64,000 bases of DNA from Bdellovibrionia bacterium (GCA_040399745.1 JBBARP010000008.1:90079-154078), one strand, 5' to 3'. Positions 5,646-14,653 are shown, numbered from the stretch's first letter. Program-made: numbers and translations. Notes: a model not told the origin generated them from the sequence alone.

Positions 5646-6355
5646 TCCGGTTGCTGGAGCGTCGCGGAGCATGGTCTTTCCTGGTACTCGCGCTTTTGTG
5701 CGGAGCGCTTTCGTTGTCTGTGGACAGCGGCCAGGCAGAAGGTCAGGAAGCTCCGGCAGCGACGCCTTCGGCAGTACCGTCTGCTAATCCGGCTGAATCG
5801 GAATCGGCGGATCCTGAGGCTCTGAAAGACGCTCAGAAGAGTAAGGCAGCACTGAGACATGATTCGGGTCGATGTTTGGTAGATCCGACTGCGATTTCCG
5901 ATTTGCGCCGCCGTAGCGAAGAAGTGGAAGCTCGCGCCAAAGCCCTTGAATCACGGGAGCAAGAGCTCGCTGCTCAGAAGCGTGCAGTCGAAGAGGACGT
6001 GAAGCGTTTGACCGCGGTTCGCGAGGAAATTGAGAAGTTGCAAGGCTCGCTGAAGAAGTCAGGCGAGGAACGAGTCGCCAAGCTCGTCGAGACGATGGAA
6101 GCGATGGCTCCGAAGGGGGCTGCGCAGCTCATTTCTGGGGTCGAGGACCAACTGGCCGTTTCCGCGATGACACGGCTTTCGACCGCTAAACTTGCAAAAA
6201 TATTACCGCTCATGAGCCCAGAGCGTTCTGCATTTTTGACCGAGAAAATGGCAGGGGTGATTCGTACCCAAGCCAAGAAAGGAGGCAAGGACCATGATTC
6301 AGAACATCTCGACAATGCAAGCACGCGCGAACCCGCGCGCGAAGCACAGTACTGA
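5642..6355 (+). CDS. MotE/YlxF-like flagellar protein (MgtE N-terminal-like C-domain)
   Basis: N-terminal hydrophobic segment, coiled coil, then KLVETMEAMAPKGAA..AKIL..MSPE motif; fliJ-X-fliK position. Confidence 0.75.
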   Translation: MIRLLERRGAWSFLVLALLCGALSLSVDSGQAEGQEAPAATPSAVPSANPAESESADPEALKDAQKSKAALRHDSGRCLVDPTAISDLRRRSEEVEARAKALESREQELAAQKRAVEEDVKRLTAVREEIEKLQGSLKKSGEERVAKLVETMEAMAPKGAAQLISGVEDQLAVSAMTRLSTAKLAKILPLMSPERSAFLTEKMAGVIRTQAKKGGKDHDSEHLDNASTREPAREAQY

Positions 6356-7976
6356 AGAGGCTTCAGATTCCAAGTCAAAGGGCCTTGCCACCGAGGCGGG
6401 TCTCCCTTCGGATCAAGTCGATTTCAGCGCGGCCATGCTTCAGCAGGCCGCCATGCTTCAAGCGCAGCCGGCTCAGCCCCAGAAACCGATGGGTGCGGGC
6501 CTTGGGATCGCGCAGGTCGCGACTACGGTCGATGGCGATACTTCGATTGCTTCACGTTTACCTGAGACCGAGCGCGCCGCAGCTTCCTTAGGAGCGGGTG
6601 GACAGATCAGTCTGGGGCGCCCGTGGAGTAAGGACTGGGTGTATCGCCCGGGCGATGACAAAAACCTCGATTTGAAGCCTCTTTTTGGCGAGTCGATGGC
6701 AGAGGCCAATCCGATGCTGAAGCTTGCCCAGTTGGTGGCCGCAGCTCGGTCCAAGGCAGAGGCCCAAGAAGGTTCTCCGGCAGCGGGCCTACCCGGTTCG
6801 CTGTCTGCAAAGGCCACTGCAGCCAAGGATCTCGTCAAGAAGGGTGAAGCTCAGGGCGTGAATTCAGCGACGGCGGCGCCGATGGGCGCTGAATCGGTGG
6901 TTCTGCCTGCAGTCTTCCGGAGTGAGAACTTTGAGACCGCGTCGAGAATCCCTGCTTCTACCTTGATTCGCGAAGCGGCTCAGGCGGGACGGGAAGTCTC
7001 GGAGCAAGCTTTCCTATCGAGCCAGGGCCTCATGGAGTCTTCGATAGCGGCTGGAGTGGTGGATGCAAAAGTCCAACCCGGCGATCGCTCGAATGCTTCG
7101 AAGAGTGCTCTCCCTTCGGGCGCATGGTCGGGAGGCGAGTTCTTGGAAACTCTTCAAGGCGCCCGTAGTTCGCTGCTCAACCAGACCAAACCCGTGAACT
7201 CTGGTGTGCAGCTCGGTGACGCACTTTCAGCTCCGACTCTGCGCGGACAGGATTTGGATTCTCTGAAGCAGGAGCCGGGTAGCGAGGCGTTGAGTCCGTT
7301 TGATTCGAGCTTGGCATCAGTCGTATTGAATCAACCGACAGCAGCGCGAAATAGTTCTGCTGAAGCCGGCATGATCGCGACGATGGATGGCCAAGTGACT
7401 CAGAACGGCGCTCAGCAAAATCGACTTTCGAGCCAGTCGGTACGTGATCTTTCCTCCCAGATTCGTTTGGTGAGCCAGAACCCGACGGGTGGGGAAATGC
7501 GAATTCGCCTGAATCCAGGAAACCTGGGCGAGCTTCACCTGAAGATTACGACTCAAGGAAACCAAGTGGGTCTGAAGATCCAAGCTTCTGATGAGCGCGC
7601 ACGCCGGATTATTGAAGAGTCCTTAGGATCTTTGAAAGAGGGCTTGGCCTCTCAGCGGCTCCAGCTCGTTCAAACTGATGTGGCCGTCGGCCAGGGTTTC
7701 GCAGGCTCGCTAGGTCAGTTGGATGAATCGCTTCGTCAGAACCTGTCTCAAAATCAGCAGGGTTCGCAGCAGGGTCAGCAAGCCTGGAATCAAGCCATGG
7801 GGAATTTTGACCAGAACGGCGGTTTCCGGGAGCGAGGGTCGCGCAGTGACTCCCAAGATTCGGGCACTGGCCCGGTGAGTGGGATGCCGCCGAGACCCAT
7901 GGCCAGCCTCGCGGGTCGTTCCATTTCGAGTTCCCTGAACCGGCTTTCTAATGGAAGGGTGGACATTCGAGCATGA
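6294..7976 (+). CDS. fliK: Flagellar hook-length control protein FliK
   Basis: Long low-complexity N-region, C-terminal MRIRLNPGNLGELHLKI domain, Gln-rich tail. Confidence 0.9.
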   Translation: MIQNISTMQARANPRAKHSTEEASDSKSKGLATEAGLPSDQVDFSAAMLQQAAMLQAQPAQPQKPMGAGLGIAQVATTVDGDTSIASRLPETERAAASLGAGGQISLGRPWSKDWVYRPGDDKNLDLKPLFGESMAEANPMLKLAQLVAAARSKAEAQEGSPAAGLPGSLSAKATAAKDLVKKGEAQGVNSATAAPMGAESVVLPAVFRSENFETASRIPASTLIREAAQAGREVSEQAFLSSQGLMESSIAAGVVDAKVQPGDRSNASKSALPSGAWSGGEFLETLQGARSSLLNQTKPVNSGVQLGDALSAPTLRGQDLDSLKQEPGSEALSPFDSSLASVVLNQPTAARNSSAEAGMIATMDGQVTQNGAQQNRLSSQSVRDLSSQIRLVSQNPTGGEMRIRLNPGNLGELHLKITTQGNQVGLKIQASDERARRIIEESLGSLKEGLASQRLQLVQTDVAVGQGFAGSLGQLDESLRQNLSQNQQGSQQGQQAWNQAMGNFDQNGGFRERGSRSDSQDSGTGPVSGMPPRPMASLAGRSISSSLNRLSNGRVDIRA

Positions 7977-9064
7977 TCCCGATCAGTGGTGGTAAATTCG
8001 GTGAAGGTGCTCTGCCTCAAGTGTCAGCCGCGACGACCTCTACGTTGGCGTCGAAGGATCTGGCTCAAAACGGCCAAACTGAAAAATTCAGCGACGTTTG
8101 GAAGAAAATCCAAGCTGAGTATGGTGCCAAGCAGGAGAAGCCTCGGGAGATTAAAAAATCCCTCGGTAAAGACGATTTCATGAAGATCATGGTGACGCAG
8201 ATGCAGCACCAAGATCCCACCAATCCCTTCAAGGCCGAGCAAATGGCGCAGCAGATGGCGCAGTATGCTTCGGTCGAGCAGCTGCAGAACATCAATCAAA
8301 ACGTCTCGAAGATGGGCAATCAGAATCAGCCGCTCGAGCGATTGGCGATGACGAATTTGATTGGTAAGACTGTGACCGTGGACCGCGAACGGTTCCCTTA
8401 TAAAGAGGGAACGAAGCTTCCCCTGGGATTTACTTTGCCGCGTGAAGCTTCGCAGGCTCGAATTTCGATTAAAAACGAAGCGGGTGAAGAAATCTTCGGA
8501 CGCGACCTGGGTGCACAGAAAGCGGGACCAGGGACCTTCCTGTGGGACGGGATTCTGGCCAACACGCTTCCAGCGAAGTCGGGGAATTTGTCGTACCACC
8601 TGGAAGCCAAGGACGCGAAGGGCGCTGATATCCCGATCGATCCGCGTGCGAAAGTCCAGGTCGTTGGCCTGAGCTTCGAAGGGAAGGAGCCCATTCTTCT
8701 GGTGGGTGATCCCTCTCGCCCCGATTCGGTGGCGATGTCGGCTATCTCCAAAATTGAAGCGGATGCTCCTATGGTTTCGAGAGCGGCTCCGCAGGCGGTC
8801 ATTTCTGCGATGCCAAATCAGCACGATCTGGCCATCGATATGGCTCAAAGCCGCTCGGCCGAAAGAAACGGACCGGCACAAGCTGCCGAGGTTGCGGAAG
8901 TTCAAAAACCGCAAAATAATTATTTTACGTTCCTGCGAGGAGAAGGTTCGAAGACCATCGAATCCCAATCCGAACAGGAGAGCCTGCGAGCAGCAGGTGA
9001 AGGGACCTACCGCGGCCCTCGTGAAGAACGCGGTTTTCCGAATGGGTTAGGAGGAGGTGAATGA
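7973..9064 (+). CDS. flgD: Flagellar hook capping protein FlgD (extended termini)
   Basis: LGKDDFMKIMVTQMQHQDPTNP..QMAQYASVEQL motif; Ig-like WDG motif. Confidence 0.93.
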   Translation: MIPISGGKFGEGALPQVSAATTSTLASKDLAQNGQTEKFSDVWKKIQAEYGAKQEKPREIKKSLGKDDFMKIMVTQMQHQDPTNPFKAEQMAQQMAQYASVEQLQNINQNVSKMGNQNQPLERLAMTNLIGKTVTVDRERFPYKEGTKLPLGFTLPREASQARISIKNEAGEEIFGRDLGAQKAGPGTFLWDGILANTLPAKSGNLSYHLEAKDAKGADIPIDPRAKVQVVGLSFEGKEPILLVGDPSRPDSVAMSAISKIEADAPMVSRAAPQAVISAMPNQHDLAIDMAQSRSAERNGPAQAAEVAEVQKPQNNYFTFLRGEGSKTIESQSEQESLRAAGEGTYRGPREERGFPNGLGGGE

Positions 9065-9527
9065 GATCATGAGTCAAAATCCGTTCCTTTATCCGAGCGT
9101 CACATCGATCCCATCGCAAGGGGTAGGTGAGGCCCGGGAAAGGATTCAGCCCAGGAAGACGGAACCTGGGGAATTCGACAAAGCCCTCGATCAGGTTCTG
9201 GTCAAGGACAAGTCGAAGACGCCGCCCGAAAGCCGGGCAGCGGGGTTGACGGCCGATCTGGGAATGATCAGCCAGCCCTTGAAGTTCTCGACGCATGCCG
9301 CTCAGCGGATGCAGGAACGCAAGATCAAGCTGGATGAACCCACGATGGCCAAAGTCAACGAAGCAGTCAGAAAGGCGGAAGCCAAAGGATTAGAAGACAC
9401 TCTGATTCTGACCGGCGACGCAGCTCTGATTGTGAGTGTGAAGAACAGGACGGTCATTACGGCGATGGATAAAGCCCAACTGACCGGAAACGTCTTCACC
9501 AATATCGACGGTGCCGTCATCGTCTAA
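9057..9527 (+). CDS. Flagellar operon protein, TIGR02530-like
   Basis: LKFSTHAAQRMQER..IVSVKNRTVITAMD..NVFTNIDGAVIV; located between flgD and flgE; SD AGGAGG upstream. Confidence 0.9.
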   Translation: MNEIMSQNPFLYPSVTSIPSQGVGEARERIQPRKTEPGEFDKALDQVLVKDKSKTPPESRAAGLTADLGMISQPLKFSTHAAQRMQERKIKLDEPTMAKVNEAVRKAEAKGLEDTLILTGDAALIVSVKNRTVITAMDKAQLTGNVFTNIDGAVIV

Positions 9528-9663
9528 TGCGAAGTTTGATCTGACTTGAAGTTCGACAGGAAGTTGAAATTGGACCGGAAAGACTGGCAAAGGGAAGGCT
9601 GGACCCATCGCGGGAAGCCCACCTGATCTCCTGAAGCGGGATTAGGAATTTGCGCAGGCAGAC

Positions 9664-9692
9664 CGGTTGAAAAACCGACGCAAGGAGGCGTC
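9664..9692 (+). promoter_or_regulatory. flgE leader: GAAA-tetraloop hairpin plus hairpin presenting the Shine-Dalgarno AAGGAG in its loop (CsrA-type site)
   Basis: CGGTT-GAAA-AACCG (9664-9677) and GACGC-AAGGAG-GCGTC (9677-9692), ending 5 nt before the flgE ATG. Confidence 0.55.
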
Positions 9693-9697
9693 TCGTC

Positions 9698-10981
9698 ATG
9701 GGTATTCTTTCTTCGATGTACACGGGTGTCACGGGTCTGCAAGGTCAGGGCGAAGCCCTCTCCATCTTCGGTGACAACATCGCGAACGCGAACACCACGG
9801 GCTTCAAAGTTTCCCGTCCCGAGTTTCAGGACGTCGTCGCCAAGTCGTTGAAAGGCCTCTTGGGTGGTAACCAGATCGGTCGGGGTACCCGTCTTTCGGG
9901 CGTTAACCCCGTTTTCTCGCAAGGCTCGATCACTCAGACCGAATCGGCCACTGACTTGGCTGTTACGGGCGACGGTTTCTTCTCGTTGAAAGGCCAAGAC
10001 GGGATGAGCTACAGCCGGAACGGAGCTTTCCACTTCGATAAGGACGGAAAGCTCATCAATACCGACGGCCTCCGCGTTCAAGGTTTCCTTGCAGACGACA
10101 AAGGCAAGCCCACCTCGAAGATGGGCGACATCTCGGTGGATCGATCGGTTCTCGATGCCAAGAAGACGGAGAAAGTTTCTCTGTTCATGAATCTGGATCT
10201 GCGTACCGCGAAGGCGATGGAGTTCGACCCGGAGAAGCCGGAAGCCACTTCGAACTTCGCAACCGGCGCAACGGTCTACGACACCGCAGGCACTCCGCAC
10301 GTCGTCACGGTCTTCTTCAATAAGACCGAAGAAGGTGAGTGGTCCTGGCGCGCAATGGCCAAAGGCGAAGAGATCAACGGCGGCAAGGCCGGCACCTTGA
10401 TCGAACAGGCCAAAGGCACTTTGAAATTCGATACCGATGGACGTTTGGCCGAGCAGAAAGTGGACAAGTCCGAGTTCAACTTCAATAAGGGTGCGTTGCC
10501 GAATCAGAAAATCGTTTTCGACTTCGGCTCCGACAAGAAATCGGGCGGAGAAGGCACTTCCGTGACTCAATACGGTTCTGCTTCGGAAGCCTACAAAACC
10601 CTGCAAGACGGCTACACTGCAGGCACCTTGAGCGGCCTTACCTTTGAAGACGACGGCATGTTGTCGGCGATTTTCTCGAATGGTCAGAACGTGAAGCTAG
10701 CTCAAGTGGCTTTGGCAAAGTTCGAGAACCCGGAAGGCCTTTTCAAGATGGGACAAAACCGGTTCCGTGAATCCCGCTTGTCGGGACAGCCGACCACCGG
10801 TAGCCCGGGAACTGGCGGCCGCGGAACGCTGGTGTCGAAGGCTTTGGAAAGCTCTACGACCGACATTGCAAACGAGTTCATCAACCTGATGACTGCTCAG
10901 CGCAACTTCCAGGCAAACGCGAAAGTGATTTCGACTGCCGACGAGATGATGCAAGAAGTGATCAACATCAAGCGCGGCTAA
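9698..10981 (+). CDS. flgE: Flagellar hook protein FlgE
   Basis: GDNIANANTTGFK N-terminus, DLAVTGDGFF, YSRNGAF, LESSTTDIANEF..QRNFQANAK C-terminus. Confidence 0.97.
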   Translation: MGILSSMYTGVTGLQGQGEALSIFGDNIANANTTGFKVSRPEFQDVVAKSLKGLLGGNQIGRGTRLSGVNPVFSQGSITQTESATDLAVTGDGFFSLKGQDGMSYSRNGAFHFDKDGKLINTDGLRVQGFLADDKGKPTSKMGDISVDRSVLDAKKTEKVSLFMNLDLRTAKAMEFDPEKPEATSNFATGATVYDTAGTPHVVTVFFNKTEEGEWSWRAMAKGEEINGGKAGTLIEQAKGTLKFDTDGRLAEQKVDKSEFNFNKGALPNQKIVFDFGSDKKSGGEGTSVTQYGSASEAYKTLQDGYTAGTLSGLTFEDDGMLSAIFSNGQNVKLAQVALAKFENPEGLFKMGQNRFRESRLSGQPTTGSPGTGGRGTLVSKALESSTTDIANEFINLMTAQRNFQANAKVISTADEMMQEVINIKRG

Positions 10982-11020
10982 TAGCCTAGGCTTGATGACT
11001 TGAAGTTCTAATCGCCCTAG

Positions 11021-11056
11021 AGAAAGGGGCCTCGGCAATGCCGGGGCCCCTTTCTT
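11021..11056 (+). terminator. Intrinsic terminator after flgE
   Basis: AGAAAGGGGCCTCGGC-AAT-GCCGGGGCCCCTTTCT hairpin ending in a T-rich run. Confidence 0.8.
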
Positions 11057-11247
11057 CGTCACCGGGTTGACGAGAAAGTGGGTAACTTTTTCCACTTCGT
11101 CAATAAACGGTGAAAATCCTGCCGAGCCGCGCTGAGTCGATGTCTTGGGATGTCCATTTTAGCCGAGTCGAAACTTGCCTCTCGGCCCAATGACAGTGCA
11201 GACTGATAAGGCACCGTTATCCCGATCATGGAGGATCAGGAGAGCTC

Positions 11248-11853
11248 ATGTCTGACGAAGGCGCTGGAACACCTAAGCTCGAGGAAAGTGGCAAAGGCGG
11301 AAACAACAAGTTGGTGATGATCATCATCGCTGCCAACTTGGTGATCACGCTTGGAATGATCGGAGTTCTGGTCATGTCCTTTCAGAAAGATCGCAAAGAA
11401 GCTCAAGCCGTCGATATGGTGGCGAGCGAGGAACACGGCGGTGGTGGCGAGCACGGCGAAGGCGGCGGCGGTGGTGAGCATGGCGGCGGCGGTGAGCACG
11501 GCGGCGGCGATAAATCTTCTGAGAAGAAGGGTTCGAGCAACTACGGAAAGATGATCCAGCTCGAACAGTTCACTGTGAACTTGTCGACTCCCGGAACCGT
11601 CAATCCGAAGTTCGTGCGCGTGAATATCTCGGTCGAAGTTCCCACTTCTGAAACTGAGAATGAAGTTCAGCAAAAAATGCCGCAGGTTCGGAACACTATT
11701 ATTGACCTCTTCAATAGTAAGCGTCCCACCGACCTGGTGACGGCTGAGGGCCGGGATTACCTGAAAGAGGAAATTCGGAACGCACTGAATAGCTTTATGG
11801 TGAGTGGTCGAGTGAAGAGCGTCTTCTTTACTAACTTCGCGGTTTCAAACTGA
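11248..11853 (+). CDS. fliL: Flagellar basal body protein FliL
   Basis: Single TM segment, FTVNL motif, C-terminal VKSVFFTNFAV; precedes fliM. Confidence 0.92.
   Translation: MSDEGAGTPKLEESGKGGNNKLVMIIIAANLVITLGMIGVLVMSFQKDRKEAQAVDMVASEEHGGGGEHGEGGGGGEHGGGGEHGGGDKSSEKKGSSNYGKMIQLEQFTVNLSTPGTVNPKFVRVNISVEVPTSETENEVQQKMPQVRNTIIDLFNSKRPTDLVTAEGRDYLKEEIRNALNSFMVSGRVKSVFFTNFAVSN
11431..11508 (+). repeat. Four EHG(G)n repeats inside fliL
   Basis: Encodes EHGGGG EHGEGGGGG EHGGGG EHGGG. Confidence 0.85.
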
Positions 11854-13291: not shown

Positions 13292-14653
13292 ATGCTCCTC
13301 AGTAATAGAAAACTCTTTAGACCCTTTGCTACGGTAATGGCCGCGGGCATTCTCGTGGCCCTGACTTCTCCATCTGCCTGGGCTGTGACGGCATTGAAGA
13401 AAGTTCAGGTCGGCGACGGTCAGCAGCTGTTCCTCATGTTCGACAGCAAGATTACGCAGGGGCAAATTAAGACTGAGTTCTTTAACGACACCGTTCAGCT
13501 TTCCTTGAATGATGTCTCGGTTTACCCAGCCAAGATTTTCTCGGTCGGTGGACCGGATCTGACGAAAGTCTTCGCTTATCAGTATGCGCCGAAGCTGGTG
13601 CGATGCCGCCTGACCCTGAAAGGGGATGCCGAGACCTATAAGGATCGCGTCAGCGTTCATGTCGACGGGAAGATGCTCACCGTTCGCATCGGTGGTGGCG
13701 CGTCGACTCAGGACTCTGTTAGTTTAAGCGCCGCTCAGTCGATTCGTGAGAAACCCACTCCGAAGAAAGCAGAAGCACAAGCGAGCTGGGGTAGCCCAGT
13801 GGCAGAAGAGCCGAAGCTGAACGCGGACGAGAAGCTGCTTTTAGATAAAGTTCTTCGTGATCCCGAGAAGGTTGAAAAAGCTGAGAAGGGCGAGAAGAAC
13901 GAGAAGTCCGAGAAATCGGAAAAATCTGAGCGCACGAGACGTGCCGATAAGTCGGATCGATCTGAGAAGAATGGATCTTCCTCGTTGGGCGGTCGACGTG
14001 AAGGTCCGAGCTTCATGCGACCGATCCTGGTCCTAGGCGGGATTTTCGCACTGATGGGTGCGGTCCTCTTCTTGGTGATGCGGTTTCGGAATACGCGCCG
14101 AAGCGGCTCGCCTTCCGCGGGAGCGACCGGTAAAATTTCCGGTGTCCTTGGGAAATTGATGGATCAGACTCTGGGTACCCGCCGGGAAAAGCTGATCGAC
14201 GTAGTTGCGACTCATAACTTGGGTCCAAAGAAGTCGATCACGATCGTTCGGATCTCGGGAAGAATGCTGGTCTTGGGTGTTTCGGGTGAGTCGATCAATC
14301 TCATCGCTCAGTTGCCGGATCGGACGGATGCTCCTTCGAATAGTGAAGTCGAGCGGATTTTGAATGCCGAAATGGAAGCTGAGGCACGTCGAGCGGAAGG
14401 GCATTTGACTGAGCCGCTTGAAGCTGAGGCATTGGAACAGTTTCTCGATTCCGGAAAATCGCTGGGATATGCGGCGGCCACCCACGTCTCCGCTTCTGGA
14501 GCGGTTTCGGCACGGCGTAACGCATTTCAGGACACGCTGAGCGCCAAGATCCAGCCTGGCGCTGGAAATGCCGCTGCGGCCAATTCAATTCCGGCACGCG
14601 AGTCGGTTCGGGACCGGATCAAAAACCGAGTGCAAGGGATGAAGCAACTGTGA
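13292..14653 (+). CDS. fliO: Flagellar biosynthesis protein FliO, long form with N-terminal exported domain (start may be a downstream ATG near 13338)
   Basis: Signal peptide, TM segment, then IDVVATHNLGPKKSITIVRISGRMLVLGVS FliO domain; between fliN and fliP. Confidence 0.82.
   Translation: MLLSNRKLFRPFATVMAAGILVALTSPSAWAVTALKKVQVGDGQQLFLMFDSKITQGQIKTEFFNDTVQLSLNDVSVYPAKIFSVGGPDLTKVFAYQYAPKLVRCRLTLKGDAETYKDRVSVHVDGKMLTVRIGGGASTQDSVSLSAAQSIREKPTPKKAEAQASWGSPVAEEPKLNADEKLLLDKVLRDPEKVEKAEKGEKNEKSEKSEKSERTRRADKSDRSEKNGSSSLGGRREGPSFMRPILVLGGIFALMGAVLFLVMRFRNTRRSGSPSAGATGKISGVLGKLMDQTLGTRREKLIDVVATHNLGPKKSITIVRISGRMLVLGVSGESINLIAQLPDRTDAPSNSEVERILNAEMEAEARRAEGHLTEPLEAEALEQFLDSGKSLGYAAATHVSASGAVSARRNAFQDTLSAKIQPGAGNAAAANSIPARESVRDRIKNRVQGMKQL

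Follow-up and report, generated by a model that had tools for sequence, protein, structure and literature searches.

The locus between flgD and flgE

The stretch of DNA analyzed here, 64,000 nt of Bdellovibrionia bacterium (GCA_040399745.1 JBBARP010000008.1:90079-154078), is called the window, and positions are counted from its first letter. Profile searches of the window proteins reveal a Bacillus-like flagellar operon on the + strand, with the order fliK, flgD, TIGR02530 open reading frame (ORF), flgE, fliL, fliM, fliN, fliO, fliP, fliQ, fliR, flhB, flhA, flhF, flhG, and fliA. The present report concerns the TIGR02530 gene and the 170-nt spacer (9528-9697) that separates its stop codon from the ATG of flgE, the hook protein gene. 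Two results are well supported by computation and were not found in print, namely the assignment of the protein to a toxin-type fold of the BECR (barnase/EndoU/colicin/RelE) class and the genomic coupling of the gene to a two-hairpin RNA in the flgE leader. That the protein and the RNA form a pair setting FlgE output, possibly in a secretion-coupled manner, is a reading to which we give about an even chance.

The nearest proteins and loci come from Bdellovibrionota/Oligoflexia metagenome genomes. TIGR02530 was found in 39 of 41 related genomes, and flgE follows it in all 30 relatives' loci; flgD lies upstream in 29 of these, and the 30th ends at a contig edge. The features of the region are collected in Table 1.

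Table 1. Coordinates of features around the TIGR02530 gene and flgE in the window
Feature	Position	Strand	Evidence or remark
fliK	6294-7976	+	
flgD (hook cap)	7973-9064	+	Pfam FlgD 67.3 bits, FlgD_ig 41.5 bits; abuts/overlaps TIGR02530 ORF from upstream
TIGR02530 family protein ORF	9057-9527	+	156 aa from GTG 9057; 152 aa from ATG 9069
F40-D-K-A-L44, F-x-x-Φ-Φ motif (F36-L40 if the start is 9069)	9174-9188	+	Conservation across 143 sequences
Predicted DUF4258/Ntox49-like BECR-fold core, residues 75-156	9279-9524	+	Predicted local distance difference test (pLDDT), hhalign, VIA-align, residue conservation
13-nt repeat, copy 1	9542-9554	+	Exact match; chance-level, unconserved
Hairpin 1 of flgE-leader motif	9597-9619	+	Match to covariance model R2 and compensatory changes
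Hairpin 2 of flgE-leader motif	9622-9646	+	Covarying stem pairs
Hairpin 3, flgE Shine-Dalgarno in loop	9677-9692	+	Compensatory changes, Bdellovibrionota relatives
flgE (hook protein)	9698-10981	+	NF004238 359 bits; TIGR03506 308 bits
13-nt repeat, copy 2, between flgE stop and terminator-like hairpin	10996-11008	+	Exact match
16-bp G+C-rich hairpin, then U-rich tail	11021-11055	+	Likely intrinsic terminator or stabilizer at flgE end

The TIGR02530 protein

The window ORF is a true member of TIGR02530 (flg_new, an NCBIfam equivalog), with a score of 117.3 bits against a cut-off of 83.2 and residues 72-156 aligned to profile positions 12-96 of 96. PF12611 (Flagellar_put) covers its last 24 residues with 49.1 bits (cut-off 21.1). 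Residue numbers given here count from the GTG at 9057. Translation more probably begins at the in-frame ATG at 9069, because the Shine-Dalgarno sequence GGAGGAGG (9050-9057) overlaps the GTG; this choice would put the conserved N-terminal Phe at residue 36. The nearest database protein has 152 aa, and the ESM Atlas record begins at residue 5. Flagellar_put is given as 'Function unknown' in the available part of a 2026 survey preprint of flagellar genes (PMC13277936). An ORF of a megaphage (phage G) has been annotated as TIGR02530-like (10.1101/2024.12.16.628780) and may instead be a DUF4258-type toxin domain.

The representative library held 1846 clusters of TIGR02530 relatives at E <= 0.001, and conservation was read from a 143-row alignment of the window protein and 142 of the best 150 relatives, with more distant members lying outside this sample. 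Seven short fragments (P0125, P0131, P0133, P0137, P0193, P0219, P0258) were dropped, as was P0256 (4488 aa), a probable repeat artifact in which dozens of copies of a 17-residue repeat match residues 28-44, with the G-x-F/L-x-x-A-L part among them. Residues 1-70 are variable and residues 72-156 are conserved. H80 (codon 9294-9296), K110, G111, and T135 are each found in 143/143 sequences, S78 in 142/143, R84 in 140/143, and R88 in 137/143, and the core also contains the C-terminal NVFTNID strand that corresponds to PF12611.

Comparison of families relates this core to the DUF4258 toxin domain. Residues 77-94 matched positions 1-18 of 71 in the Pfam DUF4258 profile (PF14076) with 16.7 bits and an E value of 0.0089, under the gathering cut-off of 25. 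DUF4258 proteins were also collected from the same phylum, where 48 of 201 genomes carry one; 30 ORFs were taken and 29 aligned, after one truncated at a contig end was dropped. Alignment of the 143 TIGR02530 sequences with these 29 by hhalign gave a probability of 95.7% and an E value of 9.8e-9 over 66 columns that take in the whole DUF4258 domain, and the same query against an FlhB alignment, the negative control, gave 0.14%. The blocks FS-x-HA-x-x-R-x-x-x-R-x-I and IVS..N..VITA-x-D are common to both families, each of which thus has a His block with Arg at +4 and +8 and a late strand ending in [IV]-[IV]-T-A. The aligned His (H28) and the +8 Arg (R36) are invariant in 29/29 DUF4258 proteins. 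By these profile comparisons, residues 75-156 are a remote DUF4258/Ntox49 homolog and not a Pfam DUF4258 member, because the Pfam score is under the gathering cut-off and the match spans residues 77-94 only.

Ntox49 has been defined as a predicted BECR fold with a conserved H and [KR] (Zhang et al., PMC3482391, in the part available), and these residues are kept in TIGR02530 as H80, R84, and R88 at the frequencies given above. According to a 2026 preprint, DUF4258 is the same as Ntox49 and belongs with the colicin-like BECR RNases (10.64898/2026.08.28.747851, partial text), and Gerdes lists DUF4258 among RelE/ParE toxins with activity unknown, stating that 'Little is known' (PMC11980606, partial text). 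The word stem 'flagell' occurs 0 times in the portions of these two texts that were available, and a literature search found no publication linking the flagellar TIGR02530 family to the DUF4258 toxin fold.

AlphaFold2, run from the 143-row alignment, gave a pLDDT >90 over residues 75-156 and the topology b-a-a-b-b-b-a-b, in which the seventh element is a short helix. When this model was compared with 48,161 representative chains by VIA-align, the top 20 rows were RelE/ParE/HigB/YafQ/YoeB-type toxins plus one Cami1 at rank 11 (Z 5.9-4.2). Re-alignment of the Foldseek list by VIA-align placed toxins of these same types, with one Cami1 at rank 15, in the top 26 rows, and the best match was RelE1 (Z 6.3, root-mean-square deviation 2.5 A over 68 residues). 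The RNase domain of colicin E5 matched the predicted core with Z 4.1. Taken alone, the structural similarity to RelE/ParE-type toxins is suggestive only, and the sequence link to DUF4258 is stronger than the structural link. Sequence searches of solved structures, with the window protein and with the family profile, returned nothing relevant. Within the ESM Atlas, a feature search without PF12611 gave no usable match and a structure search gave the family itself only.

The combined evidence supports TIGR02530 as a domesticated toxin-fold protein, a putative RNase or RNA binder. An earlier note on this DNA had described the ORF as a nuclease-like TIGR02530 protein; the peptide it quoted, the family identity, and the 170-nt spacer were confirmed, its proposal of a BECR-type fold is supported by the DUF4258 alignment and by best structural matches that are all RelE/ParE-type toxins, and the His and Arg residues that it singled out are conserved across the family. 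Like DUF4258/Ntox49, the TIGR02530 core has a His in the first helix, an Arg eight residues on, and the [IV]-[IV]-T-A strand, together with whole-domain homology, the same order of secondary structure elements, and the same nearest solved folds. It differs in its score under the Pfam cut-off, in having no antitoxin or immunity neighbor, in its fixed place between flgD and flgE in many phyla, and in two additions, a conserved strand at the C-terminus (PF12611) and an export-like stretch at the N-terminus.

The N-terminal region contains a conserved F-x-x-Φ-L motif. Phe occupies position 40 in 142/143 sequences, V, I, A, or L predominate at position 43, and a hydrophobic residue stands at position 44 in 142/143 (L in 121, F in 15, others in 6); across the proteins, the motif Phe has a median position of residue 36. 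This pattern resembles, and we claim resemblance only, the gate-recognition motif of early (rod/hook-class) export substrates, which is worded as F-x-x-x-Φ. The TIGR02530 gene sits between two early-type export substrate genes, flgD and flgE. The gate-recognition motif of Salmonella FlgD spans residues 36-40, and early flagellar substrates dock at FlhB-C via a short hydrophobic motif that always lies at least 30 residues from the N-terminus, according to the available part of PMC8983047. The conserved N-terminal helix was modeled with a pLDDT of ~81, and the motif is set in an otherwise variable, low-confidence region. Docking of the N-terminal 72 residues on FlhB-C (215-362), both supplied as alignments, gave a score of 0.30 and a mark of 0.32 in a run without controls, and it counts neither for nor against an interaction.

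The RNA in the flgE leader

The spacers of the 30 relatives vary from 89 to 316 nt and have three hairpins in common. Hairpin 1 consists of an outer stem (GGCU/AGCC in the window), an internal loop with an unpaired GGA opposite a single A, and an inner stem CCC/GGG. In hairpin 2, a stem of no fixed sequence carries a 12-nt loop of three Y-G-A-N units; in the genus of the window, including the same-genus locus L019, a short CUGAAGC loop replaces the 12-nt loop. Hairpin 3 presents the flgE Shine-Dalgarno sequence in its loop; in the window it reads GACGC-AAGGAG-GCGUC, with 5 bp and the hexaloop AAGGAG (9682-9687). The RNA alignment comprised 26 of the 30 sequences and omitted four whose spacers are variant or contain N. 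Compensatory changes were seen in 16 of 20 pairs, and 96.1% of cells pair vs 81.6% in shuffles, a value that 0/500 shuffles reach. A covariance model built from the relatives has a single match in the window's own genome, at 9591-9700. Hairpin 3 occurs in Bdellovibrionota relatives only, where 4 of its 5 pairs show compensatory changes among the 26 sequences, and it lies outside the multi-phylum motif described next.

A scan of one genome per species yielded 550 confirmed TIGR02530 loci, and the best 80 were used. They span Clostridia, Negativicutes, Brevibacillus, Geobacter relatives, Armatimonadota, Bacteroidota, Poribacteria, Omnitrophota, and others, and nearly all have flgD upstream and flgE downstream. 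Hairpins 1 and 2 are visible in most of these spacers, and the first often begins right on the stop codon. Stop codon and hairpin 1 are a median of 5 nt apart, and no more than 6 nt in 31 of 57 spacers. The multi-phylum RNA alignment comprises 77 non-identical segments that were picked by a regular expression on the hairpin 1 anchor and the loop, so that invariance there is partly by construction. Compensatory changes support 14 of its 16 pairs, with 93.8% of cells paired vs 68.7% in shuffles (0/500 reach this value), a covariation score of 0.70 vs 0.22 in shuffles, and at most 54% pairing in slid controls. All six pairs of the hairpin 1 outer stem show compensatory changes in this alignment, and all seven pairs of the hairpin 2 stem covary in both the relatives' and the multi-phylum alignment. 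The third base of the GGA bulge is A, C, or U in Geobacter-type sequences.

The covariance model built from the 77 sequences, R2, has one match per locus in 72/80 loci (70 at E <= 0.01), loci outside the model-building set included. All of these matches fall in the interval from TIGR02530 to flgE and on the coding strand, and no other match occurs in 531 kb. The window matches R2 on hairpin 1 only, with 19 bits. On this covariation, the two-hairpin element (9597-9646) is a real and strongly covarying RNA structure. The loci in which R2 found nothing are L069, L076, L085, L122, L130, L138, L139, and L142, and L015 and L030 likewise lack a match to the motif model. A variant first hairpin (GGCGGGUC...GCGCC) is seen in L015, L030, and L069. 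In the loci without a match, the partner RNA may have drifted in sequence or given way to another.

Rfam 15 has no family that matches 9528-9697 (E up to 10) or the motif in 11 multi-phylum loci (E up to 1), and nothing on the two-hairpin element was found in the literature on flgE leaders. By itself, the RNA motif is a widespread family with strong covariation and lies outside Rfam. The Termite-flg RNA (RF01729; PMC2864571, partial text) is similar in being a structured RNA beside flagellar genes that came from comparative genomics. However, its model is in the Rfam library and does not match the two-hairpin motif, which occurs in many cultured and uncultured phyla and not in the termite gut alone. 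Two other readings of the hairpins were tried and rejected. Pairing of the hairpin 2 loop UGAC with GGAGGUCA, common at Firmicute flgE ribosome sites, fails on UGAU loops that lack matching sites, as judged by eye. Sigma-54 or sigma-28 promoter elements in hairpins 1 and 2 do not fit in their spacing, and loop insertions and compensatory stem changes indicate RNA structure; a promoter scan found nothing on the + strand at these hairpins.

The earlier note had also claimed a structured spacer and a 13-nt repeat around flgE, and its interpretation as a whole is partly supported. A co-conserved RNA motif downstream of TIGR02530 does exist across phyla, as the R2 matches indicate. The structured spacer stands with respect to the three conserved, covarying hairpins; the folding energy of the whole spacer is unremarkable (z = -1.30, with 24/200 shuffles folding as well). 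The 13-mer TGACTTGAAGTTC is real as two exact copies, each 15 nt past a TAA stop, and its occurrence is at chance level and unconserved. Exact direct repeats of at least 13 nt form 60 or more families in the window, and when as many as 2 mismatches are allowed the 13-mer is matched 3 times vs 2.0 expected, a number reached by 31/100 shuffles. It is absent from 157 other-genome loci, the same-genus spacer L019 included, and among 159 loci only the two copies of the window DNA have it. The first 65 nt of the spacer, which contain the 13-mer, are unconserved among relatives, and the real element is the two-hairpin motif further downstream. The hexamer GAAGTT occurs three times in this unconserved part (9531, 9548, 9560), with the middle copy inside the 13-mer, and was not seen in relatives.

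Four metatranscriptome runs were examined as contigs, which cannot show RNA ends or amounts. RNA contigs from two studies run unbroken over TIGR02530, the motif, and the start of flgE (8884-9873 and 9152-9820), and a TIGR02530-motif-flgE co-transcript therefore exists. Coverage holes at 11068-11300 and, in X16, at ~9546-9630 are uninformative. The ends of two RNA contigs, again from two studies, fall at 11014 and 11016, shortly before the hairpin at 11021-11055; they are a weak hint of termination, as a G+C-rich palindrome can break assemblies. The hairpin itself folds better than chance (z = -4.78, 0/200 shuffles fold as well). Terminator-like hairpins lie within 140 nt past flgE in 33/71 loci (24 strong) vs 2/71 and 5/71 (0 strong) in intragenic controls, and flgE is bracketed by RNA structures in many carriers.

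The same 151 Bacilli genomes were searched for R2, TIGR02530, FlgD, and CsrA, which were found in 59 (exactly one R2 match each), 69, 111, and 92 genomes, respectively. All 59 R2-positive genomes have TIGR02530, and the 10 further genomes with this gene proved to have the motif right behind it when the flanks were scanned unfiltered (23.7-43.8 bits), so that 69/69 carry it. The genome scan found R2 in 0/42 Bacilli that are FlgD-positive and TIGR02530-negative. An unfiltered scan of the flgD-flgE region in 20 of these 42 found the motif in 0/20, the best hit (9.6 bits, E 0.89) lying outside the gap. This gap was measurable in 18 of the 20; one measures 146 nt, and the remaining 17 do not exceed 77 nt. 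Within this sample, the RNA follows the TIGR02530 gene and neither the flagellum nor CsrA.

Negativicutes provide a further view of the coupling. The motif is present in 27 of 41 sampled genomes, each of these 27 has at least one TIGR02530 match, and 19 of the 27 carry 2-3 copies. Among 32 copies, 26 follow TIGR02530, 5 follow a flgD-like or flgE-like gene instead, and 1 is at a contig edge; a FlgE-family ORF starts 20-127 nt downstream of 30 of them. The 5 copies without an adjacent TIGR02530 gene (L147, L148, L198, L216, L218) directly precede flgE-like paralogs, and every genome with a remote copy also has a TIGR02530-adjacent one. The extra copies ahead of flgE-like genes argue that the RNA belongs to the hook-gene leader and that the protein could act in trans, and they count against a purely physical linkage of gene and RNA.

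A putative protein-RNA pair and its alternatives

Homology, residue conservation, the fold of the RNA, and its joint occurrence with the gene in genomes were computed here; contact between protein and RNA, cleavage, export, and whether FlgE is raised or lowered are what we infer. The TIGR02530 protein would consist of a disordered N-terminal region with a docking-like F-x-x-Φ-L signal, followed by the compact DUF4258/Ntox49-homologous domain. In the mechanism that we favor, it would recognize the flgE leader, binding the two-hairpin RNA or cutting beside it, and this recognition would set the amount of FlgE made from the long flagellar operon transcript via translation or message stability. 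For example, a cut could activate flgE by leaving a message protected by a 5' hairpin; the sequence would also allow repression. Ribosomes ending the TIGR02530 ORF would have to melt a hairpin 1 that lies at the stop codon, which, as a speculation, fits either plain translational coupling or an action linked to the ribosome, as in RelE.

By leaving through the flagellar type III gate, the protein could make this control depend on the state of assembly. We hold such a link through the protein's own export to be doubtful, somewhere between tentative and improbable. At the lower end of that range stands a stricter form, a secretion-coupled RNA checkpoint in which a BECR RNase or clamp would hold or cut the flgE leader while the export gate is closed and would then be exported, giving a burst of FlgE; we consider it unlikely. 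If true, such a checkpoint would parallel FlgM at the level of RNA, with conservation from Firmicutes to Bdellovibrionota, and flagellar assembly would provide the first housekeeping role for a polymorphic-toxin RNase fold in this process. FlgM and sigma-28 form a secretion checkpoint. If TIGR02530 is exported, the two systems would share the removal of a cytoplasmic regulator by secretion, which couples expression to assembly. They would differ in that the target here is an RNA rather than a sigma factor, and the stage is rod/hook assembly and not the time after hook completion, with export suggested by the motif only.

Other flagellar systems also offer parallels. FliW-CsrA controls flagellin mRNA, and FlbT/FlaF in Caulobacter are comparable. 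As at the present locus, a small protein of the flagellar cluster is combined with the structured leader of a gene for a high-copy axial subunit, and output is possibly tied to the secretion of flagellar proteins. By contrast, the target here is the hook gene and not flagellin, the fold is unrelated to that of CsrA, the motif does not track CsrA, and binding is putative. TIGR02530/Flagellar_put is part of the core flagellar operon in many phyla, and this anonymous gene gains a fold, candidate active-site residues, a candidate export signal, and a candidate RNA partner. FlgE is the most abundant of the early flagellar subunits, and about a hundred hook subunits are needed per flagellum. If the pairing holds, it would explain how a high output of the hook subunit is obtained from a long operon message shared with low-copy proteins, and flagellar biology would gain both a new type of protein-RNA control and a new example of a domesticated toxin.

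Several points weigh against a functional pair of a toxin-fold protein and its RNA. The whole case for pairing is a case from sequence comparison. On the protein side, the Pfam DUF4258 score is under its cut-off, DUF4258 is itself without demonstrated activity (PMC11980606, in the part available), VIA-align notes that Z values <8, and hence those of 4-6.3 obtained here, can reflect a common arrangement, and Foldseek had no match at E <= 0.001 (best E 0.25, the weak list being headed by YafQ and RelE). In the model, the N-terminal helix may pack on the domain like an antitoxin helix and not serve export. On the RNA side, eight of the 80 loci, mostly Armatimonadota, have the protein without an R2 match, and the bridging RNA contigs imply that any cut at the leader is incomplete, as bulk RNA is not visibly cut. 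Gene and RNA are adjacent, and their co-presence could reflect gain or loss of one DNA segment; moreover, the genomes are related, so that 69/69 vs 0/42 overstates independence. Finally, hairpin 2 of the window lacks the conserved loop while the core residues of its protein are undistinguished, and no core position separates the two short-loop genomes from 28 relatives, a comparison of low power (n = 2).

The best surviving alternative is that protein and RNA are functionally separate, which we rate as possible and less probable than the pair. The protein would then be an accessory of hook assembly or export that works via protein contacts, with the toxin fold as a scaffold, and the RNA would be read by the ribosome, by a housekeeping RNase that makes a stable flgE message, or by another RNA-binding protein, their co-occurrence coming from adjacency. 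Gene and motif are contiguous (median 5 nt; at most 6 nt in 31/57), so one deletion takes both, and flgD runs almost straight into flgE in TIGR02530-negative Bacilli with a measurable gap. The gene lies between two exported hook proteins and bears an export-like motif, the terminator-like hairpin past flgE (33/71 vs 2/71 and 5/71) fits a stand-alone stable flgE message, and no protein-RNA covariation was seen. However, catalytic-type His and Arg residues are retained in nearly every sequence, a degree of conservation unusual in a mere scaffold. Furthermore, remote motif copies before flgE paralogs occur only in genomes with a TIGR02530 gene, and no flagellated genome of the Bacilli sample has kept the RNA without the gene.

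Binding of CsrA at the hairpin 1 GGA and the hairpin 3 AAGGAG, by which it would repress flgE and leave TIGR02530 irrelevant to the RNA, is improbable. The window genome does have adjacent csrA and fliW genes (contig C2:313267-313951), and a hexaloop over the Shine-Dalgarno sequence together with an unpaired GGA in hairpin 1 is a CsrA-site-like presentation. However, CsrA is present in 33 of the 42 motif-less flagellated Bacilli and absent from 10 of the 69 motif-bearers (Fisher p = 0.44, kinship uncorrected). Hairpin 3 is also limited to Bdellovibrionota relatives while the motif is multi-phylum, and the third base of the GGA varies in Geobacter-type sequences.

Still less credible is that the protein has remained a toxin, either of a type II toxin-antitoxin system or as an RNase effector exported via the flagellar apparatus against other cells; its homology to a toxin family, whose conserved residues it retains, and its N-terminal export-like motif would suit this idea, but no antitoxin or immunity gene adjoins it (its neighbors are flgD and flgE in 29/30 relatives and nearly all 80 multi-phylum loci), and one copy per genome with strict synteny across phyla is unlike mobile toxin cassettes. 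The 13-nt repeats as functional cis sites for processing or protein binding that bracket the flgE message are the least tenable proposal, since their exactness, their equal distance from the two stops, and their placement before and after flgE are set against at least 60 equally long exact repeat families in the window, against their absence from all 157 other-genome loci, the same-genus spacer included, and against their position in the unconserved part of the spacer.

Two further genes of the operon have unusual features. FliL (11248-11853) contains a Gly/His/Glu-rich low-complexity insert with GGGGEHG-type repeats after its membrane segment. The FliO-like ORF (13292-14653) is unusually long (453 aa), and its FliO domain is confined to residues 294-349, preceded by an acidic/lysine-rich run of EK(S/A)EK repeats.

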